The notes under the pieces: generated by a model | The model's database searches: none | Seen by the model: the letters and a program-made list of their open reading frames with translations, nothing else | Told to the model about the DNA's origin: nothing | Origin: a bacterium | GTDB taxonomy: Bacteria; Patescibacteriota; Minisyncoccia; Phycocordibacterales; JAKAEA01 | NCBI GenBank assembly: GCA_021818465.1 | Contig: JAKAEA010000001.1 | Location: 169,972 to 233,971 of the forward strand | Direction: 5' to 3' | Length of the DNA: 64,000 bases | Shown here: positions 14,814-64,000 of the stretch, in pieces | Position numbering within the stretch: position 1 is the first letter of the stretch | Layout: each line of letters begins with the position of its first letter | Position numbers and translations under genes: made by a program

Positions 14814-14925
14814 AAGATGTTCCCGATCGTTTTATTCGTAAAGAAAGGAGTAAGCAAACGAGCGGCTACGCTGTCTCTTGTGTAAAATAATCTATACGTT
14901 TTTCAATTTCGCTGAATGTACAACT

Positions 14926-15017: not shown

Positions 15018-15058
15018 GGTGGGGGCATTCTAGCAGATTTTTTATTACGATGCATTTT

Positions 15059-15715: not shown

Positions 15716-15815
15716 ACCGCAACCCTAGCGCAGCAACCTTCAAGTTTCGTTCAATTTTTTCTCAACGAAAAATAAACAGAAAAATAAGTACACAAGGTGA
15801 TTTTGAGACTGTTCA

Positions 15816-15824
15816 TGCTATAAT
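15816..15824 (+). promoter_or_regulatory. candidate extended -10 element (TGcTATAAT) for the pilM operon
   Basis: tgctataat lies 11 nt upstream of the pilM ATG. TTGAGA is upstream but at non-canonical spacing. No SD, so possibly near-leaderless. Confidence 0.25.
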
Positions 15825-15834
15825 TACCAACAAA

Positions 15835-16953: not shown

Positions 16954-17018
16954 GTTGTCCACAGTCTTAGGTCATTCATTATGAAATAAAATTTATTGGA
17001 AATGGTAGAATATGCTCA

Positions 17019-18145: not shown

Positions 18146-18149
18146 TTAT

Positions 18150-18554
18150 ATGATTTACAAACGACGAACTTCATTTTCTCCAGTATTTATCACTCTTGCA
18201 TTGTTGCTGGTGAGTGGGGGGCTAATTGCAATAGCAACTTTTCAGCCATCGACGCCAACTACATTGGCGGCGGTAGCTGTGTCAGGAGATCCAAACTTAA
18301 CGACTAACGCAGCTGGTGCTACACGGGGGGCTTCCACAGCGAATACGGGAGCCTTGAATACAGACGAAGTTACTTTAGCGAATGACATTCAACAAATTAA
18401 TTCTATTAATCTTGATACGTCAATCTTGCAAAGCCAGGCGTTTCTTAGTTTTGTGAACTTTGTACACGCTATACCACAAACAGTTGGTCGGACTAATCCT
18501 TTTGCGCCAATAAACGGTTTAGTAGTAACGGGCACTTCGTCAACGGGGCATTAG
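18150..18554 (+). CDS. hypothetical membrane-anchored protein (PilP-like position)
   Basis: N-terminal TM (FSPVFITLALLLVSGGLIAIA) plus Thr/Ala-rich region. ATG at 18150 chosen. Confidence 0.35.
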   Translation: MIYKRRTSFSPVFITLALLLVSGGLIAIATFQPSTPTTLAAVAVSGDPNLTTNAAGATRGASTANTGALNTDEVTLANDIQQINSINLDTSILQSQAFLSFVNFVHAIPQTVGRTNPFAPINGLVVTGTSSTGH

Positions 18555-18587
18555 TTAATTTGTAATGTATATTTAGGTATTTGTGTC

Positions 18588-48691: not shown

Positions 48692-49618
48692 ATGTTCTGG
48701 ACTACCAATAAACGAATTATAAAAGCCGGCTTCGTTGGTTTTTGGCGCAATGGTTTTGTGTCGTTGTCGTCTATTGTGGTTATGACGGTGACACTACTCG
48801 TTATTGTTGCCAGTCTTTTGTTCAGTATCATTTTTAGTGCCACGCTCAATCAAATCAAAAATCAAGTTGATATCACTGTCTATTTTGTGACCACCGCATC
48901 AACGAGCGATATGTTGGCGTTGCAAAAGTCTGTCGATGCTTTACCAGAAGTGGCTACTACCACATTTATCTCTGCCGATCAGGCCTTAGCAAATTTTAAA
49001 CAACGCCACGCCACCGATGAATTGACCCTACAGGCTTTAGATGAAATTAACGGCAATCCCCTTGGAGCTGAGCTGAACATTAAGGCCAAAGATCCGTCAC
49101 AGTACGCAGACATTGCCGCTTATCTTCAATCGCAAAGTGTCTCGCCAACTAATGGTTTGCCTATTATTGATACCGTTAATTACAATCAAAATCAGGCGGC
49201 CATTACCAAATTGACCGCTATCATTGACGGCAGTCGTCGGTTTGCACTTATTCTTATTGGAATTATGGTGGCTATTTCGCTCATCATTACCTATAACACT
49301 ATTCGTCTTGCTATTCACGCCTCGCGCGAAGAAATTGCTGTGGAGCGGTTGGTGGGCGCTAGTTCGCGTTTTGTTCGTGGGCCGTTTGTGATTGTTGGTA
49401 TTATGTGCGGTATTGTATCGGCTATTTTGGCGGCGGTAATTTTGTATCCGGCGACATACTACTTAGCGCAAACTACGACCACGTTTTTTATCGGTTTTAA
49501 TATTTTTAACTATTATCTTGCCAACTTCGGTCAGATATTCCTTGTGCTTTTGGCAAGTGGCATTATAATTGGAGCGATTTCTAGTTGGTTGGCAGTACGT
49601 CGCTATCTTAAAGTATGA
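48692..49618 (+). CDS. ftsX: cell-division permease FtsX
   Basis: N-terminal TM, large periplasmic loop, three C-terminal TM helices. Follows ftsE. Confidence 0.85.
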   Translation: MFWTTNKRIIKAGFVGFWRNGFVSLSSIVVMTVTLLVIVASLLFSIIFSATLNQIKNQVDITVYFVTTASTSDMLALQKSVDALPEVATTTFISADQALANFKQRHATDELTLQALDEINGNPLGAELNIKAKDPSQYADIAAYLQSQSVSPTNGLPIIDTVNYNQNQAAITKLTAIIDGSRRFALILIGIMVAISLIITYNTIRLAIHASREEIAVERLVGASSRFVRGPFVIVGIMCGIVSAILAAVILYPATYYLAQTTTTFFIGFNIFNYYLANFGQIFLVLLASGIIIGAISSWLAVRRYLKV

Positions 49619-51375
49619 GCAAGAATCACAAATACGTTTTTGTTATTGGCGGTGTTATGTCCGGCGTCGGCAAGGGTATTGCCACCTCTGCCATCGGTCA
49701 AATTCTTCAAGCAAAAGGTTTTCGGATCAATCCAATCAAGATTGATCCGTATTTAAATGTGGATGCTGGTACCATGAACCCCACCGAGCACGGTGAAGTA
49801 TTCGTACTTGATTCTGGTTTGGAAACCGATCAAGACATGGGCAACTACGAGCGCTTCTTGGAAATGAATTTAACGCCCGAAGATTATATGACGAGCGGCA
49901 TGATCTATAAACACGTCATTGAGCGTGAACGCAACCTCGGCTATGGTGGCAAGTGCGTGGAAGCTATTCCGCATATCACTGGCGAAATTGTGCGTCGCAT
50001 TATGCGCGCAGCGGAAAAAACTCGTTCCGATATCTCGCTCATAGAAATCGGCGGCACGGTCGGTGATTATCAGAACATGATGTTTTTAGAAGCAGCGCGC
50101 ATTTTGCGCTTGCGTCAGCCGGAAAGCGTATGTTTCGTGTTGGTTAGCTATTTACCTGTGCCTTCAAAACTTGGTGAAATGAAAACGAAGCCGACGCAAA
50201 CAGCAGTGCGAATGCTGAATAGTTACGGTATTCAGCCAGACATTATTATTGCGCGCTCCACCCATCCGCTTGATGCACGTCGCAAAGAAAAAATAGGAGT
50301 GTCGTGTAATGTGCACGGCGACCGCGTCATTTCCGCACCGGACATTGATTCTGTGTACGATGTACCTTTGAATTTTGAAAAAGATCACATTGGCGAAACT
50401 ATTTTGGACGTGTTACGGATGAAGCCAAAACATAATGGCACAGCTTTGGCATCGTGGAAAAAATTTGTGGCCAAGACTAAAAACGGCACGCGCGATGTTA
50501 CGATTGCTGTAGTGGGGAAGTATTTTGATTCTGGTGACTTCGTACTTTCTGACGCATATTTGTCAGTGATTGAAGCGATCAAGTTTTCGTCCTACTGGCA
50601 CAATGCGCGACCCAAGCTCACGTGGATAAATGCGAAAGAGTATGAGACTGGCATGCGTAAGGTAAGTGAGCTGGCCGCTTTCGATGGCATTATTGTTCCT
50701 GGTGGCTTCGGTACCTCTGGCATTGAAGGGGTTATCAGCGCCGTGCAATATGCTCGTGAACATAAAATTCCGTTCCTTGGTCTTTGTTACGGTATGCAAT
50801 TGCTTACGGTAGAATTTGCTCGTCATGTTGCTAAAATTCGCAACGCCCATACTGTTGAAGTTGATCCGCAGACCGATGCGCCTATCATCGACATTATGCC
50901 TGATCAAAAAAAGTTTCTCGCTTCTGGTCGGTATGGTGCCACGATGCGTCTCGGTGCATATCCCGCTAAGCTCAAGAAGGGAACTATTGCTCGTGATGCC
51001 TATGGTACCGAAAAAATTTCCGAACGTCATCGCCATCGCTACGAAGTTAATCCGGCTTTCATCAATAAACTTCTTGCCGCTGGTCTTGTGTTTTCTGGCA
51101 CCTCGCCTGACGACACACTTATGGAAATTGCTGAATTGCCACGCGAAGTGCATCCATTTATGCTCGGTACGCAATTTCATCCAGAATTAAAAGCGCGGCC
51201 GTTGGCACCTCACCCGCTCTTCGATGCTTTCATTAGTGCCGCTCTGAAGTCGCGCCCCCTGCTTGTGCATAAACAAAAAACAATTGATGCAAAGAAACAA
51301 AAAGCTCCAATTCCATCGAAAAAAATTTCTTCCCTCAAGCTCTTGAAGAAAACCGCTTTTTCCAGTATTGTGTAA
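49615..51375 (+). CDS. pyrG: CTP synthase
   Basis: N-terminal synthetase domain (KYVFVIGGVMSGVGKGI) and C-terminal class I glutamine amidotransferase domain (GLCYGMQ, His-Glu). Confidence 0.95.
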   Translation: MSKNHKYVFVIGGVMSGVGKGIATSAIGQILQAKGFRINPIKIDPYLNVDAGTMNPTEHGEVFVLDSGLETDQDMGNYERFLEMNLTPEDYMTSGMIYKHVIERERNLGYGGKCVEAIPHITGEIVRRIMRAAEKTRSDISLIEIGGTVGDYQNMMFLEAARILRLRQPESVCFVLVSYLPVPSKLGEMKTKPTQTAVRMLNSYGIQPDIIIARSTHPLDARRKEKIGVSCNVHGDRVISAPDIDSVYDVPLNFEKDHIGETILDVLRMKPKHNGTALASWKKFVAKTKNGTRDVTIAVVGKYFDSGDFVLSDAYLSVIEAIKFSSYWHNARPKLTWINAKEYETGMRKVSELAAFDGIIVPGGFGTSGIEGVISAVQYAREHKIPFLGLCYGMQLLTVEFARHVAKIRNAHTVEVDPQTDAPIIDIMPDQKKFLASGRYGATMRLGAYPAKLKKGTIARDAYGTEKISERHRHRYEVNPAFINKLLAAGLVFSGTSPDDTLMEIAELPREVHPFMLGTQFHPELKARPLAPHPLFDAFISAALKSRPLLVHKQKTIDAKKQKAPIPSKKISSLKLLKKTAFSSIV

Positions 51376-51383
51376 TCGCATCT

Positions 51384-51454
51384 TGCGGGTTCGTCTAATG
51401 GTAGGACACATGCCTCTGGAGCATGGTATTGGGGTTCGAGTCCCTGACCCGCAG
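51384..51454 (+). tRNA. tRNA-Gln (anticodon CUG)
   Basis: TGCGGGTTCGTCTAATGGTAGGACACATGCCTCTGGAGCATGGTATTGGGGTTCGAGTCCCTGACCCGCAG. U1-A72 pair, 3-bp D stem. Anticodon loop CTCTGGA. Confidence 0.8.
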
Positions 51455-51546
51455 CAGTCTAGAAAAGTATCGAAGGACCCAAAGGGGTCATATTTGCCCG
51501 CTCTTTGTGGGCTGCTTCGATATGCGAGATAATTCCCACATTCCTG

Positions 51547-52521
51547 ATGGCTAAAAAGAAAAAGAAGAAAAATTCAGGTCCCAAAAATCAGCACTTCGTA
51601 CCCAGGTGCTATCTTTCGGAGTTTACAGACCCCAACACCCCTGCAGGTCAGGAGCCCTACGTCTGGGTGTTTGATAAAGACGGTAAGAATCCTCGAAAGA
51701 AGGCCCCTAAGAATATCTTTACCGAAACGCATCTGTATACCTTCGAATTCAACGGCGAAAAGGACTTCACCATAGAAAAGAGCCTTTCAGCCATCGAGTC
51801 AAAATACGCTTACATTTTCCGTAGCAAGATCAAAGAGAAAAAGCCCCTTTCGGAGTCGGAACACGCCTATCTCTGTGCCTTCGTGGCGGCACAACTGCAA
51901 CGCACTCTGCGGTTCAAACAAAACCAGGAGAATTTCATCCAGCAGCTTATCGATCATGGCACTCAGATGGCGATGGCCCATGGGGTGACCGATTCTCCGC
52001 AGGTCCGCGCATGGCAGGAGTACAAAAAGGACATCCATAAATTGCAGCTCGTGGATGGTATTCCGTTCTTAGCAAATATTCTCATGCAGATGAGTCTGGC
52101 GTTCCTTTGCTCAAAGAATCCGAACAAAAACTGGTTCATTACCTCTGACGATCCGTGCGTGTTATTCAACCCCGACCTCCAGTGGCAGAAATTCTACGGT
52201 CCCGGTTTTGGGCAACAGAATGTGCAGCTTACTCTGGCTTTAAGTCCGGAGATAATCGTTATGTTCACGTGGGCGAACTTCCATGGCTACTCGTACGTTG
52301 ATGGCGGGAACGTAGATAATATGCTCAACCGAATGACTCGAGCCCATGCTGATAAGGAATTCATCTCGCCTTATCCAAAGAAGAAATGGATATGGTTCAG
52401 CCGTGTTCCGCTTGACCCCTTCTTTCTTCTGAAAGTCGTAAAGAATGAGACCAAAGTGTTCCTGCATCGTGTGAGGAATAATTGGCAGTATAGGAAAATA
52501 TATGCGAGACGCAGAAAGTAA
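51547..52521 (+). CDS. DUF4238-like protein, paralog 1
   Basis: N-terminal HFVPRCYLSEF (HxxPxxYLxxF) and downstream TSDDP motif, the pattern I associate with DUF4238. Lys-rich N-terminus. ATG at 51547. Confidence 0.5.
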   Translation: MAKKKKKKNSGPKNQHFVPRCYLSEFTDPNTPAGQEPYVWVFDKDGKNPRKKAPKNIFTETHLYTFEFNGEKDFTIEKSLSAIESKYAYIFRSKIKEKKPLSESEHAYLCAFVAAQLQRTLRFKQNQENFIQQLIDHGTQMAMAHGVTDSPQVRAWQEYKKDIHKLQLVDGIPFLANILMQMSLAFLCSKNPNKNWFITSDDPCVLFNPDLQWQKFYGPGFGQQNVQLTLALSPEIIVMFTWANFHGYSYVDGGNVDNMLNRMTRAHADKEFISPYPKKKWIWFSRVPLDPFFLLKVVKNETKVFLHRVRNNWQYRKIYARRRK

Positions 52522-53398
52522 TTTCAAACAAGCCCTTGATGGGATTGTTGGGTCAAGTCGATCCGATCAAAAAAAGATAGAGGCGATCAGCGAACTGATT
52601 GCTGGCTTGAACACGCTCGAACAGAACCCTGAAATTCGCCTCGCTACCGAAACGGGAGCTGTGCTGGCGCGTAAGGCAAACAGGCCAGAAATGGCTGCGC
52701 AGCTTTGTCTTATGAGAGCTAAGGCAGAGATTGCTCAGGCGGGTGAGCTGATAGCCGAAATGAAGAACCTTAAAATGGCGATAGATTGGCGCGGTTTTGC
52801 CCTTGAGAAAGCAGCAAATCGGCACAAAGACTTAGAAAAGAAGTTGAACGCAACATGGAGTGCCACTCAGGCGTTTATCGATGCAGGCTACAAGCTACTT
52901 AATGAAAAGCCATACGTTGGAGCGGCCGCTTACTGCCACGATGCTGCAGGTCAGATTTATGGCCAGCATTATCTTCAGCTGAAACTCTACTACCTAACAA
53001 CAGGAAGACCGTGGCGTGCACGAATCGGGAATTACAAAATCAGCCGGTGGCTTAGCCTAGACGACTTTTTCGTGATTGATAAAAAGTCTCGCGCACATCT
53101 CCGAAAGGTTCGGAAGGATTGTCTAACCTCGCTTCACCAGGCAATGAAGCTCTATCGACAGATTAAGGCGCGAGATTATATAATCGACACGTACCTTGAC
53201 CTGGCTCTTGAGCATCATTCTTTTAATGATGCGATTCAGAGCAAGTTTTATCTTCTTCTTGCAAGGATGTTAATGAGCGTATGGGGTCTCTCGAATAATT
53301 CTCGACTTAAGCCGAGGCTTAAGTCGCTAGAAAAACTGCCTCTGATTGGCAGCGATCGGAACGATGATATTAGTCGACAGTTACCAAACCTTTCGTGA
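52502..53398 (+). CDS. hypothetical alpha-helical protein (partner of DUF4238 paralog 1)
   Basis: 298-aa ORF overlapping the upstream gene by 20 nt (translational coupling). No recognisable motif. Confidence 0.4.
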   Translation: MRDAESNFKQALDGIVGSSRSDQKKIEAISELIAGLNTLEQNPEIRLATETGAVLARKANRPEMAAQLCLMRAKAEIAQAGELIAEMKNLKMAIDWRGFALEKAANRHKDLEKKLNATWSATQAFIDAGYKLLNEKPYVGAAAYCHDAAGQIYGQHYLQLKLYYLTTGRPWRARIGNYKISRWLSLDDFFVIDKKSRAHLRKVRKDCLTSLHQAMKLYRQIKARDYIIDTYLDLALEHHSFNDAIQSKFYLLLARMLMSVWGLSNNSRLKPRLKSLEKLPLIGSDRNDDISRQLPNLS

Positions 53399-54647
53399 TT
53401 TTTAGCTTGGTTCGAAGGCAGTCCATCAGGTCGCGCTTCTCGAATATTGACCCTTCTGTCAGGAGGTACTTTGCATAGTTCCGTATATCGGCATCTTTCA
53501 CGGAATAGTTCTCATCAGCTTTGCCCATAATCCCTGAATGGAATTTCTTATGCCGCTCGATCTCGGCTTCAAGTTTCTTCTTGATACCTGATCGTTCCAG
53601 ATCAATTACATCAAAGATTCTTAGGAATTCTTTAATAAGCACTTTCTCTTCGGTATATCCTTCTTTGCAGTTGATGTTTCGGGAACGGGTGCAGCCGTAG
53701 TAAATGTATTTGGCGACGGAGCCGTCTTTAAGAGATTTGAATTTCTCCTGGGCGGTTATTCCTGAGCCACAAGCTCCACAGGAGAGGAGACGGGTGAAGG
53801 CAAATTCTTTATTTCGATTCTTCGATTTGACTTGGAGATGAAGCTGCTTCTGTACCTCCTCGAACAACTCCTTAGAAATGAGCGGCGTGTGCTTGCCCTG
53901 GAACCATCTGCCGCTCGCTTTCGGGTATTCAAATGTGCCGTAGTAGAAATGGTTATTCAGAATGACGTAGACGTTGCTCAAGGTGAGTGGCTTTCCGGTG
54001 CGGGTCTTGAACTTAATGTCTTTAAGCCATCGGTATACTTTTCGGCCGCTCCAGCCCTCGTTAGCTACTTTTTGAAAGAGGTCCTTGATAACAGGAGCTC
54101 TATCTGGGTCTACGAATACGACACCTTTCTGGTCTTTGTTTTTGGAGTTGAGATAGCCGGTTGGAGCGACACTTGGCCAAAGCCCGAGCTCGCACTTAGT
54201 CTTGAGGCCGCGCTTCACATTAATGCTCTTATTGTCGTTCTCGAGTTTTGCTTGGCTGCCGAGAATCATCAGGAGGAACTTCTCGTTTGGGTTGTTGGTA
54301 AACCGCTGGCTGTAGGTACGGATCTCTAAGAGCTTCTTCTGATCGAAGAGGTCCACGATCGCACCAAGGTCTCCCGCGTTGCGAGAGAGGCGGTCGGGGT
54401 GCCATACGAGGATTCCATCGAATTTGCCCTCACGGATATCCATCAGAAGCTTGTTGAAAACAGGCCGCTGGCCGGCATCCTTTGCGGAGTGCGACTCGCG
54501 ATACATATCGACCACATTCAGTCCATCTCGCTGGGCGAGGCTCAGCATCTCCTTGAGCTGGGAATCTATCGAAAGCGCCTGTTTCTCCTCGGCCTCGCTC
54601 GATTTCCGGGCATATAGGCAGTACCTGACGGGGTCCTGGTTTTCCAT
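53370..54647 (-). CDS. large serine recombinase (resolvase catalytic domain, recombinase domain, zinc-ribbon)
   Basis: N-terminus MENQDPVRYCLYARKSSEAEEKQALSIDSQ has the catalytic Ser in the YARxSS context. It continues DGILVWHPDRLSRN. Recombinase domain and a Cys pair (CGACGSG...CTRSR) follow. Start at the internal Met at 54647 preferred over the 498-aa ORF. Confidence 0.85.
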   Translation of the reverse strand: MENQDPVRYCLYARKSSEAEEKQALSIDSQLKEMLSLAQRDGLNVVDMYRESHSAKDAGQRPVFNKLLMDIREGKFDGILVWHPDRLSRNAGDLGAIVDLFDQKKLLEIRTYSQRFTNNPNEKFLLMILGSQAKLENDNKSINVKRGLKTKCELGLWPSVAPTGYLNSKNKDQKGVVFVDPDRAPVIKDLFQKVANEGWSGRKVYRWLKDIKFKTRTGKPLTLSNVYVILNNHFYYGTFEYPKASGRWFQGKHTPLISKELFEEVQKQLHLQVKSKNRNKEFAFTRLLSCGACGSGITAQEKFKSLKDGSVAKYIYYGCTRSRNINCKEGYTEEKVLIKEFLRIFDVIDLERSGIKKKLEAEIERHKKFHSGIMGKADENYSVKDADIRNYAKYLLTEGSIFEKRDLMDCLRTKLKITKGLVTVD

Positions 54648-54741
54648 ACAACACAACACATGCCCGAAGCGAGGGAAGAAGTCCAGTGGTGGATAGGTGG
54701 TAACTTTCAAGTGAATTTGACTTTGATCCATTTGATGCATT

Positions 54742-55053
54742 ATGATGGTAGGTATGGAAGAGTCAGTTTCTGGATACAAAGCAGTCAAGCGGCTTGCAGT
54801 AGAGCGGCCTGATTGGCTCCCCATTGTTCGAGAATGCTTGAATTTGCGGAAAGAGATCCATAACACCGATTTCGCTGGTGCATGGGTATATCAGCGCCTT
54901 CAAGAAAAGGGCGGACCGAAATTTTCAAACCTGCGTCTTCTTGTTAGCTTTGGCATCTTGAAGAAAGAGGCAACTTCGCGCGGTGGTCGACGCGCGTACT
55001 ATTCTTTCGTAGATCCTGAAGGGGTTGAGCGGGCACTTGGCGAGTTGAAATAA
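54742..55053 (+). CDS. small hypothetical protein, possible winged-helix DNA-binding protein
   Basis: 103-aa ORF divergent from the recombinase and immediately upstream of the MTase operon. The basic C-terminal half RLLVSFGILKKEATSRGGRRAYYSF is winged-helix-like. Confidence 0.3.
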   Translation: MMVGMEESVSGYKAVKRLAVERPDWLPIVRECLNLRKEIHNTDFAGAWVYQRLQEKGGPKFSNLRLLVSFGILKKEATSRGGRRAYYSFVDPEGVERALGELK

Positions 55054-55057
55054 TTTT

Positions 55058-56155
55058 ATGAAAGCGAAAGTTGCAAATACAAGCCTTCACGGCGCGAAAA
55101 AGGCGAAGAAAGACGAGTTTTACACTCAACTCGTCGATATCGAAAAGGAGCTGAAGCACTACAAAGACCAGTTTCGCGGCAAAGTAGTCTATTGCAATTG
55201 CGACGACCCATTCGAGAGCAATTTCTTCAAATATTTCGCCGCAAATTTCAACGCGCTCGGATTGAAGAAACTCATCACGACAAGTTTTGTAAAATCGCCT
55301 ATCGCTGGCGGGCAGTTGCCGCTCTTTGAAATGCAGGGACTAAAGCCCGACGGCAAAGAGCCGTTCAAAATTGAAATACGGGAAGTACCTGACGCAGACG
55401 GCGACGGCGCGATCAACCTTGATGACGTGAAGTATCTACTACAACACGACAAGAACACCGCAATCCCGCTGAAAGGCAACGGTGATTTCCGTAGCGACGA
55501 ATGCATAGAATTTCTTAAAGAGGCGGATATTGTTGTGACAAACCCGCCATTCTCGCTTTTCCGCGAATACATTTCGCAATTGGTAGAACATAATAAAAAA
55601 TTCCTTATCATCGGCAATATCAACGCCGTCACTTACAAAGAAGTGTTCCCTTTGGTTAAAGCAAACAAATTGTGGCTTGGCGCAAGTATCCATAGCGGCG
55701 ACCGTGAGTTTAGAGTGCCGGAAGACTACCCGCTAAACGCGGCCGGATACCGAGTTGATGGAGAAGGAAACAAATATATTCGCGTCAAAGGTGTGCGCTG
55801 GTTTACAAATCTTGATTATGACGAGCGCCACGACAGCATTGTGCTTTACAAAAAGTATTCGTCAAAAGAGTATCCGAAATACGATAACTACGACGCCATA
55901 AACGTGGATAAGACCGTCGATATTCCAATGGACTACAAAGGCGCTATCGGCGTACCAATTACTTTTCTTGATAAATACAGCCCCGACCAATTTACAATTT
56001 TGGGCGCGTTGATCTCCGGCCCACTCGGACAAGAGTTAGGAGCGACCAAAACGAAACAAATAAGGCCAAACGGAAAAACGACGATGGAATACGGGCCCAT
56101 TATCAAGACCAAAGGTTATTACGGAAGAATTGTCATTAAAAATAAAACACTATGA
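55058..56155 (+). CDS. putative N6-adenine DNA methyltransferase-like protein (gamma-class order: EFYT motif X then NPPF motif IV)
   Basis: DEFYTQ near the N-terminus and DIVVTNPPFS at about aa 165. No textbook glycine-rich motif I visible; VVYCNCDDPF occupies that position. Contains a DADGDGAINLDD loop. Confidence 0.5.
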   Translation: MKAKVANTSLHGAKKAKKDEFYTQLVDIEKELKHYKDQFRGKVVYCNCDDPFESNFFKYFAANFNALGLKKLITTSFVKSPIAGGQLPLFEMQGLKPDGKEPFKIEIREVPDADGDGAINLDDVKYLLQHDKNTAIPLKGNGDFRSDECIEFLKEADIVVTNPPFSLFREYISQLVEHNKKFLIIGNINAVTYKEVFPLVKANKLWLGASIHSGDREFRVPEDYPLNAAGYRVDGEGNKYIRVKGVRWFTNLDYDERHDSIVLYKKYSSKEYPKYDNYDAINVDKTVDIPMDYKGAIGVPITFLDKYSPDQFTILGALISGPLGQELGATKTKQIRPNGKTTMEYGPIIKTKGYYGRIVIKNKTL

Positions 56156-57243
56156 AAATCGAGCTACATAAAATCAAAATACGAGAAGTCGTTAACGGCT
56201 TCAAAGACAGCGCCGAGGAAGGTGTCGTGGCGTATGGCGGCAAGCTTGATGTCCGCCCGAAGTACCAGCGCGAGTTCGTCTACAAAGACAAGCAGCGCGA
56301 CGCCGTGCTTGATACGGTCAAGAAAGGATTCCCGCTCAACGTCATGTACTGGATGGTGCGCGAGGATGGCGGCTTTGAAGTGCTCGACGGCCAACAGCGC
56401 ACCATCAGTATCGGCCAGTATGTGAATGGCGACTTTTCGCTTGGCGACCGCTATTTCCATAACCTCATCAAAGAGGAGCAAGAGCAGACTTTGAACTACG
56501 AACTGATGATTTATTTCTGCGAAGGCACGGACAAAGAGCGGCTCGACTGGTTTAGGACTATCAATATTGCGGGCGAGAAACTAACAGACCAAGAGCTTCG
56601 AAATGCCGTGTATACCGGCCCGTGGCTTTCGGATGCAAAACTTAAATTCAGCAAGACCGGCTGCGCCGCGTATCACTTGGCGAACGATGGCGGAGCGCTT
56701 GTGAGCGGCTCGCCGATCCGCCAAGAGTATTTGGAAACTGCGCTCTCATGGATAAACAAGGGCGAGGTGGCGGATTACATGGCGAAGCATCAGCACGACA
56801 AGGACGCCGAGAAATTGTGGGCGTACTTTCAGGACGTAATAGCGTGGGTGCGAAAGACGTTCCCCAACTACCGCAAGGAAATGGCGCACGTGAATTGGGG
56901 CGAGCTGTACAACGAATACAAGGACAAAAAACTAAACGCCACCAAGCTTGAGACCGAGGTCAAGAAGCTCATGCAAGACGAGGACGTAACGAAAAAGTCC
57001 GGCATCTACCCGTATGTGTTGACCGGCAACGAACGCGAGCTTTCTATCCGTGCGTTTACCGACAAAATGAAGCGCGAGGCATACGAGCGGCAAGACGGCG
57101 TCTGCACATTCTGCAAAAAGAAGTTTGATATTTCGGAAATGGAGGCCGATCACATTACACCCTGGCACGAAGGTGGAAAAACAACAGCTGACAACTGCCA
57201 GATGCTCTGCAAACTGGATAACCGAACAAAGTCGGGGAAATGA
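56152..57243 (+). CDS. DUF262 (ParB-like, DGQQR motif) domain fused to C-terminal HNH nuclease
   Basis: N-terminal KYQREFVYK...EVLDGQQRTISI. C-terminal CTFCKKKFDISEMEADHITPWHEGGKTTADNCQMLCKLDN (HNH with Zn-binding Cys). Start overlaps the MTase stop (ATGA). Confidence 0.7.
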   Translation: MKIELHKIKIREVVNGFKDSAEEGVVAYGGKLDVRPKYQREFVYKDKQRDAVLDTVKKGFPLNVMYWMVREDGGFEVLDGQQRTISIGQYVNGDFSLGDRYFHNLIKEEQEQTLNYELMIYFCEGTDKERLDWFRTINIAGEKLTDQELRNAVYTGPWLSDAKLKFSKTGCAAYHLANDGGALVSGSPIRQEYLETALSWINKGEVADYMAKHQHDKDAEKLWAYFQDVIAWVRKTFPNYRKEMAHVNWGELYNEYKDKKLNATKLETEVKKLMQDEDVTKKSGIYPYVLTGNERELSIRAFTDKMKREAYERQDGVCTFCKKKFDISEMEADHITPWHEGGKTTADNCQMLCKLDNRTKSGK

Positions 57244-58922
57244 AATACATGCCTGAGATCGTTCACCAGTTTTCAAATGCAGTGAGCATTATCTTGCACA
57301 ATCCGATCTGGGAAACTCACTCCTCATACAACTTGGGCGTTGCAATCACGGCCATAGCCATAGTTGTTGCGTTTATTGAATTTATTGCAAACAGGCGAGA
57401 GCTAAGATTTAGTTTGAATTACAGAAAGAGACAAATGGCCCTATGGTTTGCTGTTGCGAGCATAGCATTAACGTTTTTGGGAGAATTAGACGGCCTTTTT
57501 CTTGGTTACCCCTTTATTTTTGAGACCAGTGGAGCGGTACTCATGATTGCCGCTATAGCGATTTATCTCAGATTAGTTCTTAGTCCACTCAAACGACTCA
57601 ATAAAAAACAAATCTCCGTCCTACAAGATATTTTGGCCGGAACATTGTCCAATGCTCATTTGGATAAACCACAAATCGTTCGTGGTTGTATGGAGCTATT
57701 TGAAAATTTGCTGGACCTTTCCTTAGACAACAAAGATGTTCGAGGCATTTTCAGAAATGCTTTCGCCAGTGATGTCTTCCTCAAATCTTTTTCTGAATCT
57801 TATTTTGTATTCGGACGTACAGTCGATTTCTATAGGCAGAAAAGAATAGAGGGTGGACACGATTTAGACCATCTTGAATTTTTTCTCAAGCGACTCATGA
57901 CCAAGTCACTTGAGAACGGCGAATCATTCTTGAATATGTTCATTGGACAAAAAATCTATCCAAATGCCCTGTTTTGCCTTGATGATGTGATGATAAACGA
58001 GAAAAACGATTCGGCGCTTCAAACTCTTTTTGGGGAATATGGATATAACGGATTGGATTATGTTGGTCAGTTAAATTACATAGATCTGGTCACTCGTTAT
58101 TTCAGACTGGTTTATCAGGAAAATAATCATATAAGCCTAAAAGACGGATATCAACGAAATTACGAGTTGAATGATGGTCTTATTGGGATTTTCTTTGAAC
58201 AAATCAGCAACTTTATTGAGAGGTGTTATGACCAAAAACACCTTGAGGCTCTGATCGATAAGACGGAGGGTTTTTCGTGGTACTACACCTGGGGGGTCAG
58301 AACTCGAGATAAGAGCGAGCACATAAGAGGAGACACCGGCAAGTTTCTATTTGATGTTTTCTATAACTCTATTAGCAAATACGAGATCGAAAATGAGGAA
58401 ATATTCAGATTGAAAGTACATCAGTTGTACGATCATTTTCTTGAGATGCAGGAGAACGGGGTTGAGAGTAACATCGCTTACGCCGTCTTCGTAGAAAAGT
58501 TAAAGAAAAAAATACTTGGCGACGGAAAGGATGGAGACATGCCAAACTACAAGGGTTATTTCCCGGCAATGATTCTGGTCTATTTCTATATGTTTGGTTT
58601 TTATGCTTTCTCGGAAAAGCAGAATGAGGCACAGGCGAGAGACTTGCACGTACCTGTTTTCTCAAAACTAGCTGAGGCGTTTCCTAAGCTTTATCAAGGT
58701 TTTAAACAAGAATTTTATGATGCGGAAACTCTCCCAGAAGGTAAAAAAGAATTGCTCGAAAAGCAGGGACGAGAGACTTTAGATCAGTTCTTAAAAAAGA
58801 ACATGGTCTATAACTTTGAAGAAAACTCGCTGTCATATTACTACAGCGGCAACGTACACAGCGCAAAAGTATTTCTGAATGATGTTCGCGACAAACAGAC
58901 GATCGAGCCGAAGAGATTATGA
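57240..58922 (+). CDS. hypothetical membrane-anchored alpha-helical protein (operon member 3)
   Basis: 560 aa. Three or four N-terminal TM helices, then a large soluble all-alpha domain and one further hydrophobic segment near aa 440. Start overlaps the upstream stop (ATGA). Confidence 0.4.
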   Translation: MKYMPEIVHQFSNAVSIILHNPIWETHSSYNLGVAITAIAIVVAFIEFIANRRELRFSLNYRKRQMALWFAVASIALTFLGELDGLFLGYPFIFETSGAVLMIAAIAIYLRLVLSPLKRLNKKQISVLQDILAGTLSNAHLDKPQIVRGCMELFENLLDLSLDNKDVRGIFRNAFASDVFLKSFSESYFVFGRTVDFYRQKRIEGGHDLDHLEFFLKRLMTKSLENGESFLNMFIGQKIYPNALFCLDDVMINEKNDSALQTLFGEYGYNGLDYVGQLNYIDLVTRYFRLVYQENNHISLKDGYQRNYELNDGLIGIFFEQISNFIERCYDQKHLEALIDKTEGFSWYYTWGVRTRDKSEHIRGDTGKFLFDVFYNSISKYEIENEEIFRLKVHQLYDHFLEMQENGVESNIAYAVFVEKLKKKILGDGKDGDMPNYKGYFPAMILVYFYMFGFYAFSEKQNEAQARDLHVPVFSKLAEAFPKLYQGFKQEFYDAETLPEGKKELLEKQGRETLDQFLKKNMVYNFEENSLSYYYSGNVHSAKVFLNDVRDKQTIEPKRL

Positions 58923-59821
58923 ATAAACAGAGTCGAAGCCATCATTATCTACCGCGACATTATCTCGAAGGCTTTAAAGGGAGCAACAGCGGTTTTTTCG
59001 TCTACGACAAACAGGAAGATAAAATCTTTCCCTCCAGCCCCGGCGCTACTTTCTTTGAAAATCACCTAAATACCGTCTACCTTCCTGACGGTAAAACCTC
59101 TGTATTCGTCGAAGACCAATACACAAACATTGAGAATGATTGCTGGCCCGCCATAGATAGGATAAGGACCTCCGACAGCAAGACCCTAATTACTCACGAG
59201 GACAAGGAATTCTTGCATCTCTTCTTGTCTTCGCTGTACTGGAGGCTTCCAATAAATTCATCGATGGCAGAGCAGTGGTCCAAGAGTGCATTCACTGACA
59301 CCAGTCCTGTCGATTACTTTCGTCTGAAAAACAAGCAAGGAAAATCGATACCGCGTCACATCGTAGATGCGATTAGGGACTCAGATGCATTCAAAAAATC
59401 ATTCAGATTGATCCTGTCCATGGCTCCTTTTCTCAAGGATAAGAGTTGGGGTCACAAGTTGCAAAACTGGCGATTTTTCTATCACCAAAACGGGCAGCGC
59501 TTCAACATTGTTGGCGATAATCCAATTCTGACCCGAACTGAAAATCACGAAGACCCAGTATCATTGTTGGACGAATTTGTATTTCCACTATCAGCGAGCA
59601 TAACAATCGTTAATACAAACCCCGTTCCAACAAAAGGCCTATCTCCGGAATTTACCCTTCAATTAGGTGTAGCGATGGTAGAGAGGGCGCGGCGGTTCGT
59701 CGTTTCTCACAACAAAGCTTGGCTAGAAGCAGTAGTAGGCCACTACAAAATTTATGCGAACGCGGGAATGAATCACCTGATTCTCGATCAATTATGCCTC
59801 ATGTTGCAACAGGCAGCCTAG
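58919..59821 (+). CDS. DUF4238-like protein, paralog 2 (operon member 4)
   Basis: N-terminal HHYLPRHYLEGF and downstream GDNPIL motif. Start overlaps the upstream stop (ATGA). Confidence 0.5.
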   Translation: MNKQSRSHHYLPRHYLEGFKGSNSGFFVYDKQEDKIFPSSPGATFFENHLNTVYLPDGKTSVFVEDQYTNIENDCWPAIDRIRTSDSKTLITHEDKEFLHLFLSSLYWRLPINSSMAEQWSKSAFTDTSPVDYFRLKNKQGKSIPRHIVDAIRDSDAFKKSFRLILSMAPFLKDKSWGHKLQNWRFFYHQNGQRFNIVGDNPILTRTENHEDPVSLLDEFVFPLSASITIVNTNPVPTKGLSPEFTLQLGVAMVERARRFVVSHNKAWLEAVVGHYKIYANAGMNHLILDQLCLMLQQAA

Positions 59822-59862
59822 CCCCAGTCTTCAGAGCGTTTTTCGGAGCAGTGTTGAAGGCC

Positions 59863-60081
59863 TTATAGAAAATACTCGACCTTCTTTCCGTAAAGCTTCG
59901 CGAGTCGGTTTAGCCAAATAGCCTCAACTCGCAATTCTCCAAGTTCGATCTTAGATACCCAAGACTGTGAACAGCCGAGCTTTTCTGCTACTTCGGCCTG
60001 CGTAAGCCCAGCTTCCAAGCGGGCTTTCTTGAGTTTCTTCACGAACCCGGCCCGCTCATCGGTATGAATGGACTTCTTCAT
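59863..60081 (-). CDS. XRE-family (Cro/C1-type) HTH transcriptional regulator
   Basis: LTQAEVAEKLGCSQSWVSKIE, a classic HTH_3 signature. 72 aa. Confidence 0.8.
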   Translation of the reverse strand: MKKSIHTDERAGFVKKLKKARLEAGLTQAEVAEKLGCSQSWVSKIELGELRVEAIWLNRLAKLYGKKVEYFL

Positions 60082-60095
60082 ACCTATAAGCGTCT

Positions 60096-60125
60096 ATTCC
60101 GTATTGGGATATTCCAAAGCGGAAT
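60096..60125. promoter_or_regulatory. imperfect inverted repeat, candidate operator of the XRE regulator
   Basis: attccgtattgg-gatatt-ccaaagcggaat, lying 15-45 nt upstream of the regulator start (minus strand). Confidence 0.3.
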
Positions 60126-60230
60126 ATTTATGCTAAGCTCAGAAATAGCCTCCAAAACCGCCATTTGTGGAGGTGTTGGTAACTGGGACTACACAACCCT
60201 CCGAAAAGAAGCTAAAGAACAAGGACCCAT

Positions 60231-60806
60231 ATGAAAACCCACATAATCGTTACGGCACTCATCACCGTTTTTGCGCTCCCGACCGTCGCGCTAGGAGCTT
60301 CCTTCACATACTCGCTGATTCAAGGCAGGACGCCAGCAGAGGCCGTATCGATCATTGCCGATCAGGTGGATCTACTTTTTGGCCGCGTAGATACCCTCGA
60401 AGCACAGCAAGCAAGCACGACCGCCGAGCTTGAGCAATTGAAGCAGGAGAACGCAAATCTTCAGGCAAAGACAGCTGCGATAGCATCAAGCACGGCAAAG
60501 GCTAGCGCCGCTGAAGATAGGCGCTCAACCTGCGCAGACTTCGCCAGTAGGATCGGCAAGATAGAGACATCTATAAAGGCACCGTACGTTCAGCAGATGA
60601 CCACGCTCAGTGCTCAGATTCACACTCTTGCTGCGCAGAAGAATAGTGCCAGTACCACGATGGACGAAGCGGTCCAAATAAAGCAACAGATGCAAGCTCT
60701 ACAGAAGCAGATGAGCGACTTGAACGACCAGATGCAGCAAGCCATGGACGCAAATACCGATCTACAGGCACTCATTAAGCAGGCCAATAATCTCCTATGC
60801 GCCTGA
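60231..60806 (+). CDS. secreted coiled-coil protein
   Basis: Signal peptide MKTHIIVTALITVFALPTVALGA, then Gln/Ala-rich heptad-like sequence. Confidence 0.4.
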   Translation: MKTHIIVTALITVFALPTVALGASFTYSLIQGRTPAEAVSIIADQVDLLFGRVDTLEAQQASTTAELEQLKQENANLQAKTAAIASSTAKASAAEDRRSTCADFASRIGKIETSIKAPYVQQMTTLSAQIHTLAAQKNSASTTMDEAVQIKQQMQALQKQMSDLNDQMQQAMDANTDLQALIKQANNLLCA

Positions 60807-61030
60807 CAAGCCGATATCTGAAAATTGGGATAGGTGTTGTTGCTGTGGTGGTTTTGCTGCTGATTTACCACGTAGCTGTTGTCGTGCCGAAAGAGGTTCG
60901 TGAACTATGCGACAAGCAGGCGATGCAAGCCGCTGCTCCAGCAGCCGATTATCGCCCAGACTACTCGCTTGATTTATACACATTAAAATTTAATTCCTGT
61001 CTCCACAGTCACGGATTGCAGGCAAGGTAG
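60797..61030 (+). CDS. small hypothetical membrane protein
   Basis: 77-aa ORF with one TM segment (IGIGVVAVVVLLLIYHVAVVV). Overlaps the previous gene by 10 nt. Confidence 0.25.
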   Translation: MRLTSRYLKIGIGVVAVVVLLLIYHVAVVVPKEVRELCDKQAMQAAAPAADYRPDYSLDLYTLKFNSCLHSHGLQAR

Positions 61031-61207
61031 CTGGGGGTATAATTAAGCAAAAGTCGGAGAACCCGGATACCTGGGCCCGCAAGCATTCGACAATCCGCAT
61101 TTGCGCGACCGATTGCTCCGAAGGTGAAAAGAGGAAAATACAGGAGAACTCTTTCCACGCTCACCGAGCATTAAGAGCCCTGCCTTATTTGCTAAGCGTT
61201 ATTGCTT

Positions 61208-61768
61208 ATGCAAGGCAGAAAGATACCTAATGATACGTGGAAGAAATTTCCACGAGTACTTGCTCAAGTGGGCGGCTCCATAACCGCAGCCGCTACCCAA
61301 TTTGGGGTTGATCCAAGATCCGTCTATTACCACATGCGACGCAATCCAGCGTTCGCAAGCAAAATTCAGGAAGTCTACGACACAACCGTCGTTCCTATCC
61401 TTGAACAGCAGATGTACGCGCTCGCGCTCTCGAAGGACTATCGGGCGATGAGATTCATTCTTGCTAACCGTTCGCCGCGAAGGTGGAATACGGAATTCGT
61501 ACTCCGCACCGAGCTTGAAGTGGAACTCGCGCGAGAAGTGAAGAGGATAGAAGACGGCGAGAAGAAGCGAAAGCCGGTCTGTAAATGGATGTCGCTTAGG
61601 GAACTAATCCTCAAGCACATCTATGAACAGCACCTCTACAGCGGACAACCCATTCCGGACATACTTACGATAGATACGAGAGAGGAGAAGAAATACTTCG
61701 AGTCGTATCGATCTCACAGAGAAGCATGGCTCAAAGAGCATCCAGACGGAAGAGATGTAGGCGAGTAA
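61208..61768 (+). CDS. HTH-domain protein (phage terminase small subunit-like or regulator)
   Basis: N-terminal HTH GSITAAATQFGVDPRSVYYHMRRNP. ATG at 61208 preferred over the TTG at 61202. A hairpin spans the start region. Confidence 0.35.
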   Translation: MQGRKIPNDTWKKFPRVLAQVGGSITAAATQFGVDPRSVYYHMRRNPAFASKIQEVYDTTVVPILEQQMYALALSKDYRAMRFILANRSPRRWNTEFVLRTELEVELAREVKRIEDGEKKRKPVCKWMSLRELILKHIYEQHLYSGQPIPDILTIDTREEKKYFESYRSHREAWLKEHPDGRDVGE

Positions 61769-61777
61769 ATCGCAGAA

Positions 61778-61808
61778 CAGTCAAGGCCCCGAAAGGGGCC
61801 TTGACTGT
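61778..61808 (+). terminator. hairpin terminator
   Basis: cagtcaaggcccc-gaaa-ggggccttgactg; weak T-tail. Confidence 0.45.
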
Positions 61809-62009
61809 TGGGCTGTGCTTACCCTCAAATTCGGCGAAAAGTGCGAAAAGTTAGATCGACCTAAAGCCGTCAAAAGCCGTGGGGTAAATCTGCTAAAATA
61901 CCCTTACAACAGCTCGCTACAGTTGGTACCAGACCAGACATCGCAGCACTTATAAAATTTTGGGAATACAGTTTTCTTGTTTGATTTTTGTTAAACCAAG
62001 AGATTTTTA

Positions 62010-63404
62010 TTATAAAAAATGAATGTCCTCAATCTCTTCTCGTTGGCCGCGAATGACGGTGTCTGCAATGTGGGTGACGGCTTTTTTGGGCGTATTGAGG
62101 AGGCCGTTGACCGCCGCACCAGCCAACCAACCGGATTGTAGCCAATCTAGTAGCCACTCGTGCGTGAAGCGTGGATCAAATTGCTCAATGCCGGCGCCAA
62201 CCATGTGCAGCCACGCACGGTTCGATTCTTCTTGCGAGCCGAGCGGGGGAGCGATAATGATAGGCAAGCCAAGGCCTGCGTAAAAAGAAAGTTCACTCGG
62301 TTTAGTCCAGAGAATATCGGTTTCAGTTAGTGCGGCAGCGAATTTTTTAAAATACTCAAATGTATTCGGCGCGTACACAATATTGTTTTCACTCCGGATG
62401 CCAAGTCGCTGCATTGCTGCTTCAAATTTTTTCTTAATATACTCAAGCGCACCAGCTGCCAGTATGAGTCGAATGGTGCCAGACGTGATGTGCTGACGAA
62501 GTGATTCGAGAATTGTAATACCAATTTCCCATTGGGCGCCAGCGCCGCCAACAGAAAACATGATTGTAAGTGGCGTGCGGGTTACATCTGCAGTCGATTG
62601 CTTAAGTGATGCGCCAGTTGTGTCGCTGATGTAGAGATCTAAAAGTTCCCCATACTTTTTCCGATATCGGCCGTGGGGATCTAATACCGCAAGACGACGG
62701 GAAAGAGTGGCGGCAGTGATATCGGACCGATTAGATATTTCTGGTAAGGGAAAACCGGTGATGATAATGCGCTCGGCACGAATGCCGTAGAGTTTTAAAC
62801 GTTCTTTAGCACGCAGGGTTGGCGCAAGATAGGTGATGCGACTGCGTGTTGGATCAAGCGGTGCCCAGGCACGAGCTACGTCGGTGTCGGTGCACAAACA
62901 GTAAATGTCACCACGGTAACCGTGTTCTTCAGCAAAAAAAGCAGGAACAGGAAAGGTGCATATGAGAGGCAGCGGCTCGGCATTGAGTGTATCAATGAGG
63001 TGTTTGCCCCAGTGCGCTCTTCGAATTAATGTATATGTTTCTTTCAGCTCTAGTGTTGGTTGCGACAAGTCGCGGCGTGGATAAAATGGTGGAATTTGAT
63101 GGAGATAATCCATGAGGTGGAAAATACGCTTACCTAAAAAAGGAATACTGTCGAAACGCGACACGCCCTCGTATGTTTTTTCAATGTTATTCCAAATCAA
63201 TCGGTCTTTTTTAGGAATATTTGTATACGTATTCGCGGAAATAATTGTTGATTCAGTCGAATCCCAAAGTTTGGGTAGTGTGGCTATGCCACGCAAGGGG
63301 AATGCTGCTCGCTGATGACCGTAGCCCATATCTACTGCTACGACATATGCACCGCGAGGATGAATGGAAGATTCAGACATAGGTACTATCATTCTAGTAT
63401 ACAC
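62010..63404 (-). CDS. GT28-family (MurG/MGDG-synthase/UgtP-like) GT-B glycosyltransferase
   Basis: N-terminal Gly-rich loop VDMGYGH. C-terminal TKPSELSFYAGLGLPIIIAPPLGSQEESNRAWL resembles the MurG/UgtP donor-binding region. Confidence 0.5.
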   Translation of the reverse strand: MYTRMIVPMSESSIHPRGAYVVAVDMGYGHQRAAFPLRGIATLPKLWDSTESTIISANTYTNIPKKDRLIWNNIEKTYEGVSRFDSIPFLGKRIFHLMDYLHQIPPFYPRRDLSQPTLELKETYTLIRRAHWGKHLIDTLNAEPLPLICTFPVPAFFAEEHGYRGDIYCLCTDTDVARAWAPLDPTRSRITYLAPTLRAKERLKLYGIRAERIIITGFPLPEISNRSDITAATLSRRLAVLDPHGRYRKKYGELLDLYISDTTGASLKQSTADVTRTPLTIMFSVGGAGAQWEIGITILESLRQHITSGTIRLILAAGALEYIKKKFEAAMQRLGIRSENNIVYAPNTFEYFKKFAAALTETDILWTKPSELSFYAGLGLPIIIAPPLGSQEESNRAWLHMVGAGIEQFDPRFTHEWLLDWLQSGWLAGAAVNGLLNTPKKAVTHIADTVIRGQREEIEDIHFL

Positions 63405-63480
63405 CTCTCGATTAATTTGTGTGTATAAAAAAACAGGACTATTAAGTCCTGTTCAACCGAACCATTCAATGATCTGGACT

Positions 63481-63702
63481 CTAGAAGAGTCGATATTGAA
63501 TGGAGGGTTTTTTTTGTGCCTGCGCACGTTTTTTTGCAGCGCTGCGCTTACCCAGTTCCGAAAGAATTTGCCGAAACATCTCTTGTCGTGTGTTGGGCGC
63601 TATACCGTGTCGTTGAAGCACGGTAAGCGCCGCGCGCGGTCGAGGAATCCCGAGTTTGCCGAGTGCTTCTGTCTCGTTGGCCAGTGTTTTTATACTGCAC
63701 AT
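63481..63702 (-). CDS. small basic hypothetical protein, possible HTH
   Basis: 73-aa ORF with a basic C-terminal tail (KRSAAKKRAQAQKK). Confidence 0.25.
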   Translation of the reverse strand: MCSIKTLANETEALGKLGIPRPRAALTVLQRHGIAPNTRQEMFRQILSELGKRSAAKKRAQAQKKPSIQYRLF

Positions 63703-63855
63703 TTTTGGACCCCTTTCTGTAAAAGAACAAACATATTATACTATGAATATAAATATAAGTCAATGCATGTAATTGACAAAACTATTATATTGAATTATGG
63801 TTAATTTGGTTTGGTGTATATTGTGTAGTTTTTTAAAATAGAAAGGAGCCTGTGT

Positions 63856-64000
63856 ATGGCTACAAAAACGCAAGATATTAACGTGCAAAAAATCATTCCT
63901 TTACCAACTCCGTTTGAACTCAGGGATACCTGGCCGCTTACAACTCATGCGCTTCAGAACGTGGAGTACGCGCGTCAGGCCGTTCAGAATATTCTCGCAG
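63856..64000 (+). CDS. class I 3-deoxy-7-phosphoheptulonate (DAHP) synthase, N-terminal fragment; 3' end cut by window edge
   Basis: RBS gaaaggag 7 nt upstream of the ATG. N-terminus KIIPLPTPFELRDTWPLTTHALQNVEYARQAVQNIL aligns with AroG/AroF N-termini. Confidence 0.55.
   Translation, partial: MATKTQDINVQKIIPLPTPFELRDTWPLTTHALQNVEYARQAVQNILA

Follow-up and report, generated by a model that had tools for sequence, protein, structure and literature searches.

A conserved DUF4238–TPR gene pair beside a tRNA-linked serine recombinase in Patescibacteria: a possible two-component variant of an anti-phage system

The stretch of DNA analysed here, called the window throughout, comprises 64,000 nucleotides (nt) of contig JAKAEA010000001.1 (assembly GCA_021818465.1, positions 169,972 to 233,971, forward strand), from a bacterium of the Patescibacteriota. 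Its subject is a pair of overlapping genes, A and B, which lie between a tRNA-Gln gene and a convergent gene for a large serine recombinase. Gene A encodes a DUF4238 protein of 324 amino acids (aa), and gene B a protein of 298 aa resembling tetratricopeptide repeat (TPR) proteins. An earlier reading of the sequence (the original prediction) had placed the pair at the end of an island next to tRNA-Gln, with a second DUF4238-like gene, the fourth of an operon, on the far side of one recombinase; this arrangement is indeed found, and the coordinates given for the pair are exact. The principal features, in window coordinates, are as follows, and the loci compared with the window are labelled L001, L003, L010, L013 and so on.

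51384..51455, plus strand: tRNA-Gln(CTG), located with ARAGORN, ending 91 nt 5' of gene A
51456..51489, plus strand: tRNA-proximal junction, from an alignment of the junctions of nine loci; about 10 nt, then a motif (51466-51476) and a hairpin (51475-51489)
51526..51539, plus strand: -10-like GAGATAAT box, read from the sequence, 14 nt 5' of the gene A ATG
51547..52521, plus strand: gene A, DUF4238 protein, 324 aa (Pfam PF14022)
52502..52521, plus strand: A/B overlap of 20 nt, from the coordinates of the open reading frames (ORFs); translational coupling
52502..53398, plus strand: gene B, TPR-like helical repeat protein, 298 aa (AlphaFold model, family profile)
53370..54647, minus strand: large serine recombinase, 425 aa (Pfam; start corrected by aligning 11 homologous upstream regions)
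54645..54708, minus strand: motif 5' of the recombinase ATG (alignment of 11 loci)
54742..59821, plus strand: variable cargo past the recombinase, five genes (Pfam, PADLOC)
58919..59821, plus strand: second DUF4238 gene, 300 aa, stand-alone type (Pfam PF14022)

Gene A matches the Pfam profile PF14022 with 120.7 bits (E=1e-34; the gathering score is 27 bits) over profile positions 1-276 of 281, and the second DUF4238 gene matches it with 99.2 bits (E=3.7e-28), so the two are true, divergent members of one family, as had been proposed from their resemblance. Aligned directly, they are 25% identical over 110 aa (E=2e-5). In a family alignment of 13 sequences, taken from the A clade, the A2 clade, alphaproteobacterial plasmids and one phage, the residues H16, P19, Y22, E77, E84, F112, R119, I198, D201 and P203 are invariant; because these family residues are shared by gene A and the second DUF4238, the N-terminal and mid-protein motifs common to them can be ascribed to homology and not to chance, on pairwise and profile hidden Markov model comparison alike. 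Six of the positions that are invariant across clades carry polar or aromatic side chains (H16, Y22, E77, E84, R119 and D201), a pattern that would be expected of an enzyme active site. A search of viral protein models returned a single significant fold match to gene A, an uncharacterised protein from Smp131, a P2-like phage (E=5e-10), and this agrees with the one functional datum for the family, resistance to T7 conferred from a P2 hotspot in E. coli.

The AlphaFold model of gene A (pLDDT 87.3) has two further features. The protein begins with a basic, lysine-rich N-terminal tail, and it ends in a clade-specific extension (residues ~283-324) that is modelled as one long helix at residues 291-322. 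Every A protein in the alignment with a B partner, seven in all, has the extension, and none of the four full-length DUF4238 proteins lacking a partner has it; a fifth partnerless protein is truncated, whereas the extension of the phage protein is unrelated to that of gene A. The C-terminal helix is thus the probable docking site of gene B. In an Oscillospiraceae phage (L035, PV036438.1, 996-5507) a 389-aa DUF4238-like gene, 25.6% identical to gene A, lies two genes 3' of a gene annotated as a 'DNA invertase' (a serine recombinase), and an ORF of 121 aa overlaps its 3' end.

Gene B was originally described as unrelated to gene A and all-alpha, and its predicted structure (AlphaFold, 24 homologs; pLDDT 84.5, pTM 0.81) consists of helices only. 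No match to gene B was obtained in Pfam, PADLOC, NCBIfam or PHROGs. Foldseek comparison with the PDB gave as top matches the TPR domain of LGN/Pins and 14-3-3, both weak (E ~3e-3, TM≤0.45), while the profile of the B family matched Pins/LGN TPR at E=3.6e-7, and ten of 45 family members matched TPR_12 (best E=2.4e-5). An exhaustive profile search of 1.84 billion cluster representatives recovered 90 that belong to the B family, each of about 300 aa. In the 45-member alignment no polar residue is invariant, and W96 and F99 are nearly so. Since the family has no invariant polar residue and matches both TPR_12 and the Pins/LGN profile, gene B is read as a divergent, non-enzymatic repeat protein of the TPR type. 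The motif EHHSF, invariant among close homologs of B, was considered as a catalytic site and discarded, the motif being lost in distant members of the family.

The pairing of the two genes is constant. The overlap of 20 nt in the window is exactly as first described, and A is followed by B with an overlap of 11-20 nt at every one of 18 loci, comprising 15 distinct related loci and three distant ones. In the distant loci gene A is 46-51% identical to that of the window and the downstream genes, encoding 308-320 aa, match the B profile with E=5e-26 to 4e-14. The close homologs of B are found exclusively in Patescibacteria (Paceibacteria and relatives). Among the 12 loci that are complete, mean pairwise identity is 71% for A and 48% for B; B is the more diverged of the two in 65 of the 66 locus pairs, and across the pairs the identity of A correlates with that of B (Spearman 0.67, p=5e-10). 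The two genes thus co-evolve, with B much the faster, and faster divergence is what would be expected of a sensor that meets changing targets.

A Shine-Dalgarno-like AGGA lies inside gene A, 9 nt 5' of the gene B ATG. Upstream of A, a -10-like GATAAT/TATAAT box is found 6-14 nt from the start codon, with no Shine-Dalgarno sequence, in the window and at L013, L014 and L039, and from this arrangement the mRNA of gene A is probably leaderless or near-leaderless. A generic scan for promoters and terminators gave nothing above chance, the -10-like box before gene A included.

On the side of gene A, the edge of the conserved region is marked by a tRNA gene or by something resembling part of one. A tRNA gene ends 60-330 nt 5' of A at eight of the 13 loci that could be assessed, and three further loci have a tRNA-like fragment instead. 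The tRNA is tRNA-Gln in the window and elsewhere tRNA-Ser, with four different anticodons. The tRNA is followed by about 10 nt, then by an AGTATCG(G/A) motif (AGTATCGG) and a short hairpin, an arrangement common to nine loci. The tRNA is missing from L013, L020 and L039, where its place is taken by a conserved sequence of 90-110 nt (~8862-8948, ~8826-8920 and ~9833-9918, respectively) that ends in GGGTACTTAACCCAC..CCGCCA, resembling a T-arm and acceptor stem, and leads into the same junction motif. This sequence was entertained as a structured RNA and rejected, as nothing in Rfam matched it and no consensus fold emerged apart from the T-arm-like hairpin; for the same reason it looks like a DNA site, and it may represent an unrecombined attachment site.

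Some peculiarities of the serine tRNAs may be recorded here. At L003 (6920-7009), L007 (6825-6912) and L019 (8834-8923) a tRNA-Ser with the unusual anticodon ACT stands directly before A-B, and in each case it adjoins a normal tRNA-Ser(GCT). Where the tRNA-Ser(ACT) genes of L003 and L019 differ in the anticodon stem, the changes compensate one another, a sign that the tRNA may be functional. At L007 a 78-aa GIY-YIG ORF (6430-6666) lies between the two tRNA-Ser genes, and it is missing from L008, which is 95% identical.

On the side of gene B lies the recombinase, which has the Resolvase (PF00239, E=4.7e-25) and Recombinase (PF07508, E=6.2e-18) domains and the zinc ribbon (PF13408, Zn_ribbon_recom; E=7e-4, under the gathering score) by which large serine recombinases are recognised. 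It is convergent with gene B, and the 3' ends of the two genes overlap by 29 nt. Homologs close to A-B, 56-60% identical to it, were shown by tblastn with the window proteins to occur in several arrangements among the 15 related loci: convergent with B and abutting it at eight, convergent but 0.7-2 kb distant at two, on the opposite side of A-B at two (L013 and L022), reduced to a C-terminal remnant of ~50 aa directly after B at two, and absent at one. In the remnants (L001, 8872-9027; L003, 8868-8990) the last ~45-50 codons, corresponding to residues ~368-421, are kept, and the point of truncation falls at nearly the same residue in the two lineages. The A-B pair is intact at these two loci and at L018, L023 and L024, which have no recombinase, from which it follows that the function of A-B does not depend on the recombinase.

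Before the recombinase start codon there is, at 11 loci, a motif of ~65 nt of the form AGTTACCAAC..GGGACGCTCTGGACTCC..TGCGTCAT..ATG, which could be either a control region of the recombinase gene or an attachment (att) half-site. Variable cargo starts immediately past it. The shared core accordingly runs from the tRNA-like site through A, B and the recombinase to this motif, a length of ~3.3 kb (~51456-54708 in the window), and both the restriction-modification operon and the second DUF4238 gene of the window fall outside it. The strongest pattern in the data, one that the original prediction did not note, is that tRNA, A-B and serine recombinase go together in many genomes.

Within the core, the recombinase has a history of its own. 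Its distances do not track those of A (Spearman -0.25) or of B (-0.10); L014 and L015, for instance, are 96% identical in A and in B and 67% identical in the recombinase, and L010 and L011, 99% identical up to that point, part company a few codons within the recombinase gene. This decoupling, together with the switch in identity between L010 and L011, indicates that the parts have been reassorted by homologous recombination. Capture of cassettes at the recombinase-upstream motif, in the manner of an integron, was considered and rejected: L010 and L011 both keep versions of the motif, which have diverged, so that related elements have apparently exchanged DNA by homologous recombination, not by a site-specific reaction at the motif. 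L039 carries a pair of related genes for large serine recombinases (1-818 and 11824-13514), separated by 11 kb and identically oriented, each with a 109-aa neighbour (75-86% nucleotide identity) and with methylases and other cargo between them; A-B precedes the second of the two. This suggests tandem elements, which could explain why in some layouts the recombinase is found upstream of A-B.

The ends of the island were not to be found by breaks in synteny, because DNA similarity between the window and all the other loci is confined to the coding regions of A, B and the recombinase. No second copy of the 3'-terminal 23-mer of tRNA-Gln (allowing up to three mismatches) was found in the window, and there is no relevant direct repeat of the att type in 51300-64000. 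An inverted repeat of 22 nt (53392-53413 and 59530-59551, 82% complementary) was judged to be due to chance. Serine recombinases do not require direct repeats at tRNA ends, and the lack of a repeat is therefore compatible with mobility.

The genes past the recombinase vary from locus to locus, and include type I, II and III restriction-modification systems, a ParB-methylase, a reverse transcriptase, an Hsp70-like protein with an AAA protein, and host genes; KAP NTPase and HipA are also found among the defence neighbours of A-B. The corresponding genes of the window, other than the second DUF4238, and the gene on the far side of the tRNA, are:

49615-51375: pyrG, 5' of tRNA-Gln(CTG)
first cargo gene, plus-strand block: ORF of 103 aa, beginning 34 nt past the recombinase-upstream motif
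55058-56155, plus strand: EcoRI-like methyltransferase (Pfam, PADLOC)
56152-57243, plus strand: GmrSD_N+HNH restriction enzyme (Pfam, PADLOC)
57240-58922, plus strand: membrane protein of 560 aa, 5' of the second DUF4238 gene

At L020 the gene for a reverse transcriptase of 367 aa adjoins the recombinase, and 3' of it a pair of genes encoding 613 and 136 aa is duplicated in tandem (14096-19306). The cargo of L013 contains a LOOT RNA (Rfam RF03000; 5283-5409, 74.8 bits, E=2.8e-12), flanked by a ParB-methylase gene and a VRR-NUC-like gene.

The second DUF4238 gene of the window proves to be of a different kind from gene A. Its closest relatives (46-61% identity) stand alone, beside insertion sequence (IS) transposases and with no 560-aa protein. 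The 560-aa protein, for its part, belongs to an uncharacterised family with 82 homologs (35-83% identity), which in the contexts examined follow either an EcoRI-methyltransferase/GmrSD-HNH operon (L031 and L032, where the methyltransferase-restriction enzyme-560-aa operon also occurs without a recombinase) or a type III restriction-modification operon (L033), with no DUF4238 gene nearby. That the 560-aa protein might be a dedicated partner of the second DUF4238 was therefore rejected; each occurs without the other elsewhere, and their juxtaposition in the window looks incidental. A PycTM gene adjoins the 560-aa homolog of L033, and another homolog occurs in L034. Of the two DUF4238 genes of the window, then, one belongs to a dedicated two-gene module, A-B, and the other is of the ordinary stand-alone type, appended to a restriction-modification operon. 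The original prediction had seen in the two DUF4238 genes a pair of modules flanking one recombinase, and hence a family that swaps partners. The window does not contain two equivalent modules; the broader notion of varied partners does draw some support from the TIR system of E. coli that includes a DUF4238 domain and from plasmids, where three DUF4238 genes that were inspected each had different upstream genes. No B-like neighbour was found for DUF4238 genes on 249 plasmids, and the plasmid and A2-type DUF4238 genes adjoin genes for replication and partition.

What is known of DUF4238 function comes from E. coli. Strong resistance to T7 has been traced to a DUF4238 protein encoded in a P2 hotspot (Rousset et al. 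2022, PMC9122126), and a validated TIR defence system includes a DUF4238 domain (PMC11350192); late in 2024 the domain had still to be classified. In the literature on DUF4238 that was consulted, the domain figures as a single-gene system, as an unclassified domain or as a domain of a TIR system, and a TPR partner, a clade in Patescibacteria or a link to a serine recombinase is not described there. The nearest relation of A-B is the single-gene system named Rst_DUF4238 in DefenseFinder and DUF4238-Pers in PADLOC, with which gene A shares PF14022, the HxxPxxYL N-terminal motif and the mid-protein D-x-P; the fold of gene A is that of the P2-like phage protein, and both occur among defence genes on mobile DNA. 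That system consists of one gene, whereas gene A has an obligate, overlapping, co-evolving TPR partner at 18 of 18 loci and a clade-specific C-terminal helix, and it resides in a Patescibacteria host on a tRNA-linked serine-recombinase island and not in a P2/P4 hotspot. The stand-alone character of Rst_DUF4238 fits the second DUF4238 of the window. That gene gave no match to the PADLOC model DUF4238-Pers (PDLC03000) at E≤0.01.

Other known systems resemble parts of the arrangement. A fast-evolving TPR-type repeat module paired with an enzymatic module is found in the Avs/STAND and TIR-TPR (TIR-II) systems (PMC11350192), but B is a separate protein of 300 aa with no NTPase/STAND domain, and its partner is DUF4238. 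The E. coli system combining TIR with DUF4238 (PMC11350192) indicates that DUF4238 is able to work alongside another functional module, a TIR NADase in that case; the partner here is a non-enzymatic TPR protein, with no TIR. The island as a whole recalls tRNA-targeting islands and large-serine-recombinase (LSR) elements such as SCCmec ccrAB and LSR prophages, having a recombinase at its edge, variable defence cargo, an edge at a tRNA 3' end and a tRNA-like fragment on the element. It departs from typical tRNA-targeting islands in that its recombinase is of the serine family and that no displaced repeat of the tRNA-Gln 3' end lies within the window. It is tyrosine integrases, and not serine recombinases, that typically target tRNA genes.

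Taken together, these comparisons make it tempting to suggest that A-B is a two-component variant of the DUF4238 anti-phage system, carried on a tRNA-associated recombinase island, and this is a proposal that we hold with middling confidence. Gene A, with its DUF4238 fold and its invariant set of His, Tyr, Glu, Glu, Arg and Asp, would be the executing, probably catalytic, subunit. Gene B, made in step with A from the overlapping frame, would bind A, probably through the clade-specific C-terminal helix, and act as a fast-evolving sensor or regulator that couples the activity of A to a cue of infection. The pair would be the constant passenger of a small island having a tRNA 3' end or tRNA-like site on one side and a convergent large serine recombinase on the other, and further defence genes (type I, II and III restriction-modification, reverse transcriptase) would gather next to the recombinase, which may be what moves the unit. 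The proposal is supported by the bona fide DUF4238 domain, the anti-T7 homolog, the DUF4238 of the TIR system and the fold match to a P2-like phage; by the constancy and co-evolution of the pair and the contrast between a TPR-like B and the invariant residues of A; and by the partner-linked C-terminal extension, the neighbouring defence genes and the persistence of A-B where the recombinase is gone.

Several observations weigh against this proposal. The data on protection from phage stem from E. coli proteins, which would lie outside the A clade; gene A is only ~25-33% identical to proteobacterial DUF4238 proteins, and its match to the PADLOC model DUF4238-Pers is partial (E=1.4e-7, residues 170-242 only). 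No biochemical activity has been assigned to DUF4238 in any system, and the PDB holds no relative of gene A by sequence or by fold, so that its label of effector comes from the conserved residues. The A-B module was not found on IMG/VR viral contigs, nor was the tRNA-like site pattern, and no homolog of B was found on plasmids, which leaves the proposal with no independent support from mobile-element hotspots outside Patescibacteria. Finally, the very tight link to one recombinase family could mean that A-B has a role in the biology of the element itself.

A rival reading makes the pair an addiction module akin to a toxin-antitoxin system, in which A is a toxic enzyme and B its co-translated neutraliser, and the pair stabilises the island because cells deprived of it die; action against phages would then not be its main function. 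This is a serious rival, albeit an unlikely one. A translationally coupled, overlapping pair that is the constant passenger of a mobile-looking unit and outlasts the decay of the recombinase is much what it would predict, and the location of A2-type and plasmid DUF4238 genes beside plasmid replication and partition genes also speaks for it. Yet at 324 and 298 aa the proteins are far larger than those of typical type II pairs, neither A nor B matched any toxin-antitoxin family in Pfam or PADLOC, and the much faster evolution of B suits outward recognition better than it suits a fixed antitoxin interface; many DUF4238 proteins, moreover, stand alone, so that lack of a partner does not of itself make the domain lethal. 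The toxin-antitoxin and abortive-infection defence roles are not mutually exclusive. A reading of A and B as accessory factors of the recombinase (a directionality factor, a selector of tRNA 3' ends as targets, or a regulator of excision) is very unlikely. The 3' end of B abuts or overlaps that of the recombinase at eight of 15 loci and lies less than 2 kb from it at two more, the cassette begins at a tRNA or tRNA-like site, and A has a lysine-rich N-terminal tail, all of which such factors might show; but the identities of the recombinase are decoupled from those of A (-0.25) and B (-0.10), the pair stays intact with no recombinase (L018, L023, L024) or beside a remnant (L001, L003), a homolog of the recombinase occurs at L034 without an adjacent A-B, and the E. 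coli DUF4238 protein defends against T7 with no recombinase involved.

The same decoupling of phylogenies can be turned round, to suppose that A-B is a fixed chromosomal 'landing-pad' by tRNA genes, beside which recombinase elements integrate with their cargo, the linkage reflecting their choice of target site and A-B belonging to no mobile unit. The C-terminal recombinase remnants that follow B in loci lacking a recombinase, and the upstream synteny common to L003 and L007, would be in keeping with this. It is nonetheless distinctly unlikely, given that flanking genes differ at nearly every locus, that the tRNA-like 3' fragment and junction motif accompany A-B even where the tRNA is missing (L013, L020, L039), and that at L013 and L022 A-B lies 5' of the recombinase. 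A bolder extension of the two-component defence proposal would make the block of tRNA-like site, DUF4238, TPR and recombinase a self-contained mobile element of Patescibacteria, ~3.3 kb in length, that targets tRNA 3' ends, carries DUF4238-TPR as its obligatory passenger and nucleates defence islands beside the recombinase gene, the DUF4238 protein being an enzyme gated by a dedicated repeat-protein sensor. So complete a picture we consider somewhat unlikely.

A gene pair of this kind is not in itself surprising, but it offers a concrete and testable entry both to an orphan defence domain and to a recurring island architecture in the candidate phyla radiation (CPR). DUF4238 is a validated anti-phage domain that has neither a solved structure nor a fold relative, and a clade in which it is always paired offers a means of separating sensing from execution; the invariant residues of gene A amount to a list of targets for mutation. 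Gating of DUF4238 by a TPR protein, if true, would be the first handle on how the domain works, and a serine recombinase that targets tRNA 3' ends, if that is what this one does, would be of interest for genome-engineering tools. The genomes of Patescibacteria (CPR) are tiny, and few defence systems are believed to be present in them. A compact cassette that recurs among them with differing cargo points to lineage-specific building and exchange of defence islands.

Elsewhere in the window, at 2498-2879, there is a tmRNA gene for which the predicted tag peptide, ATTALGSVASPYFKGAPAFAYATA, is unusually long.

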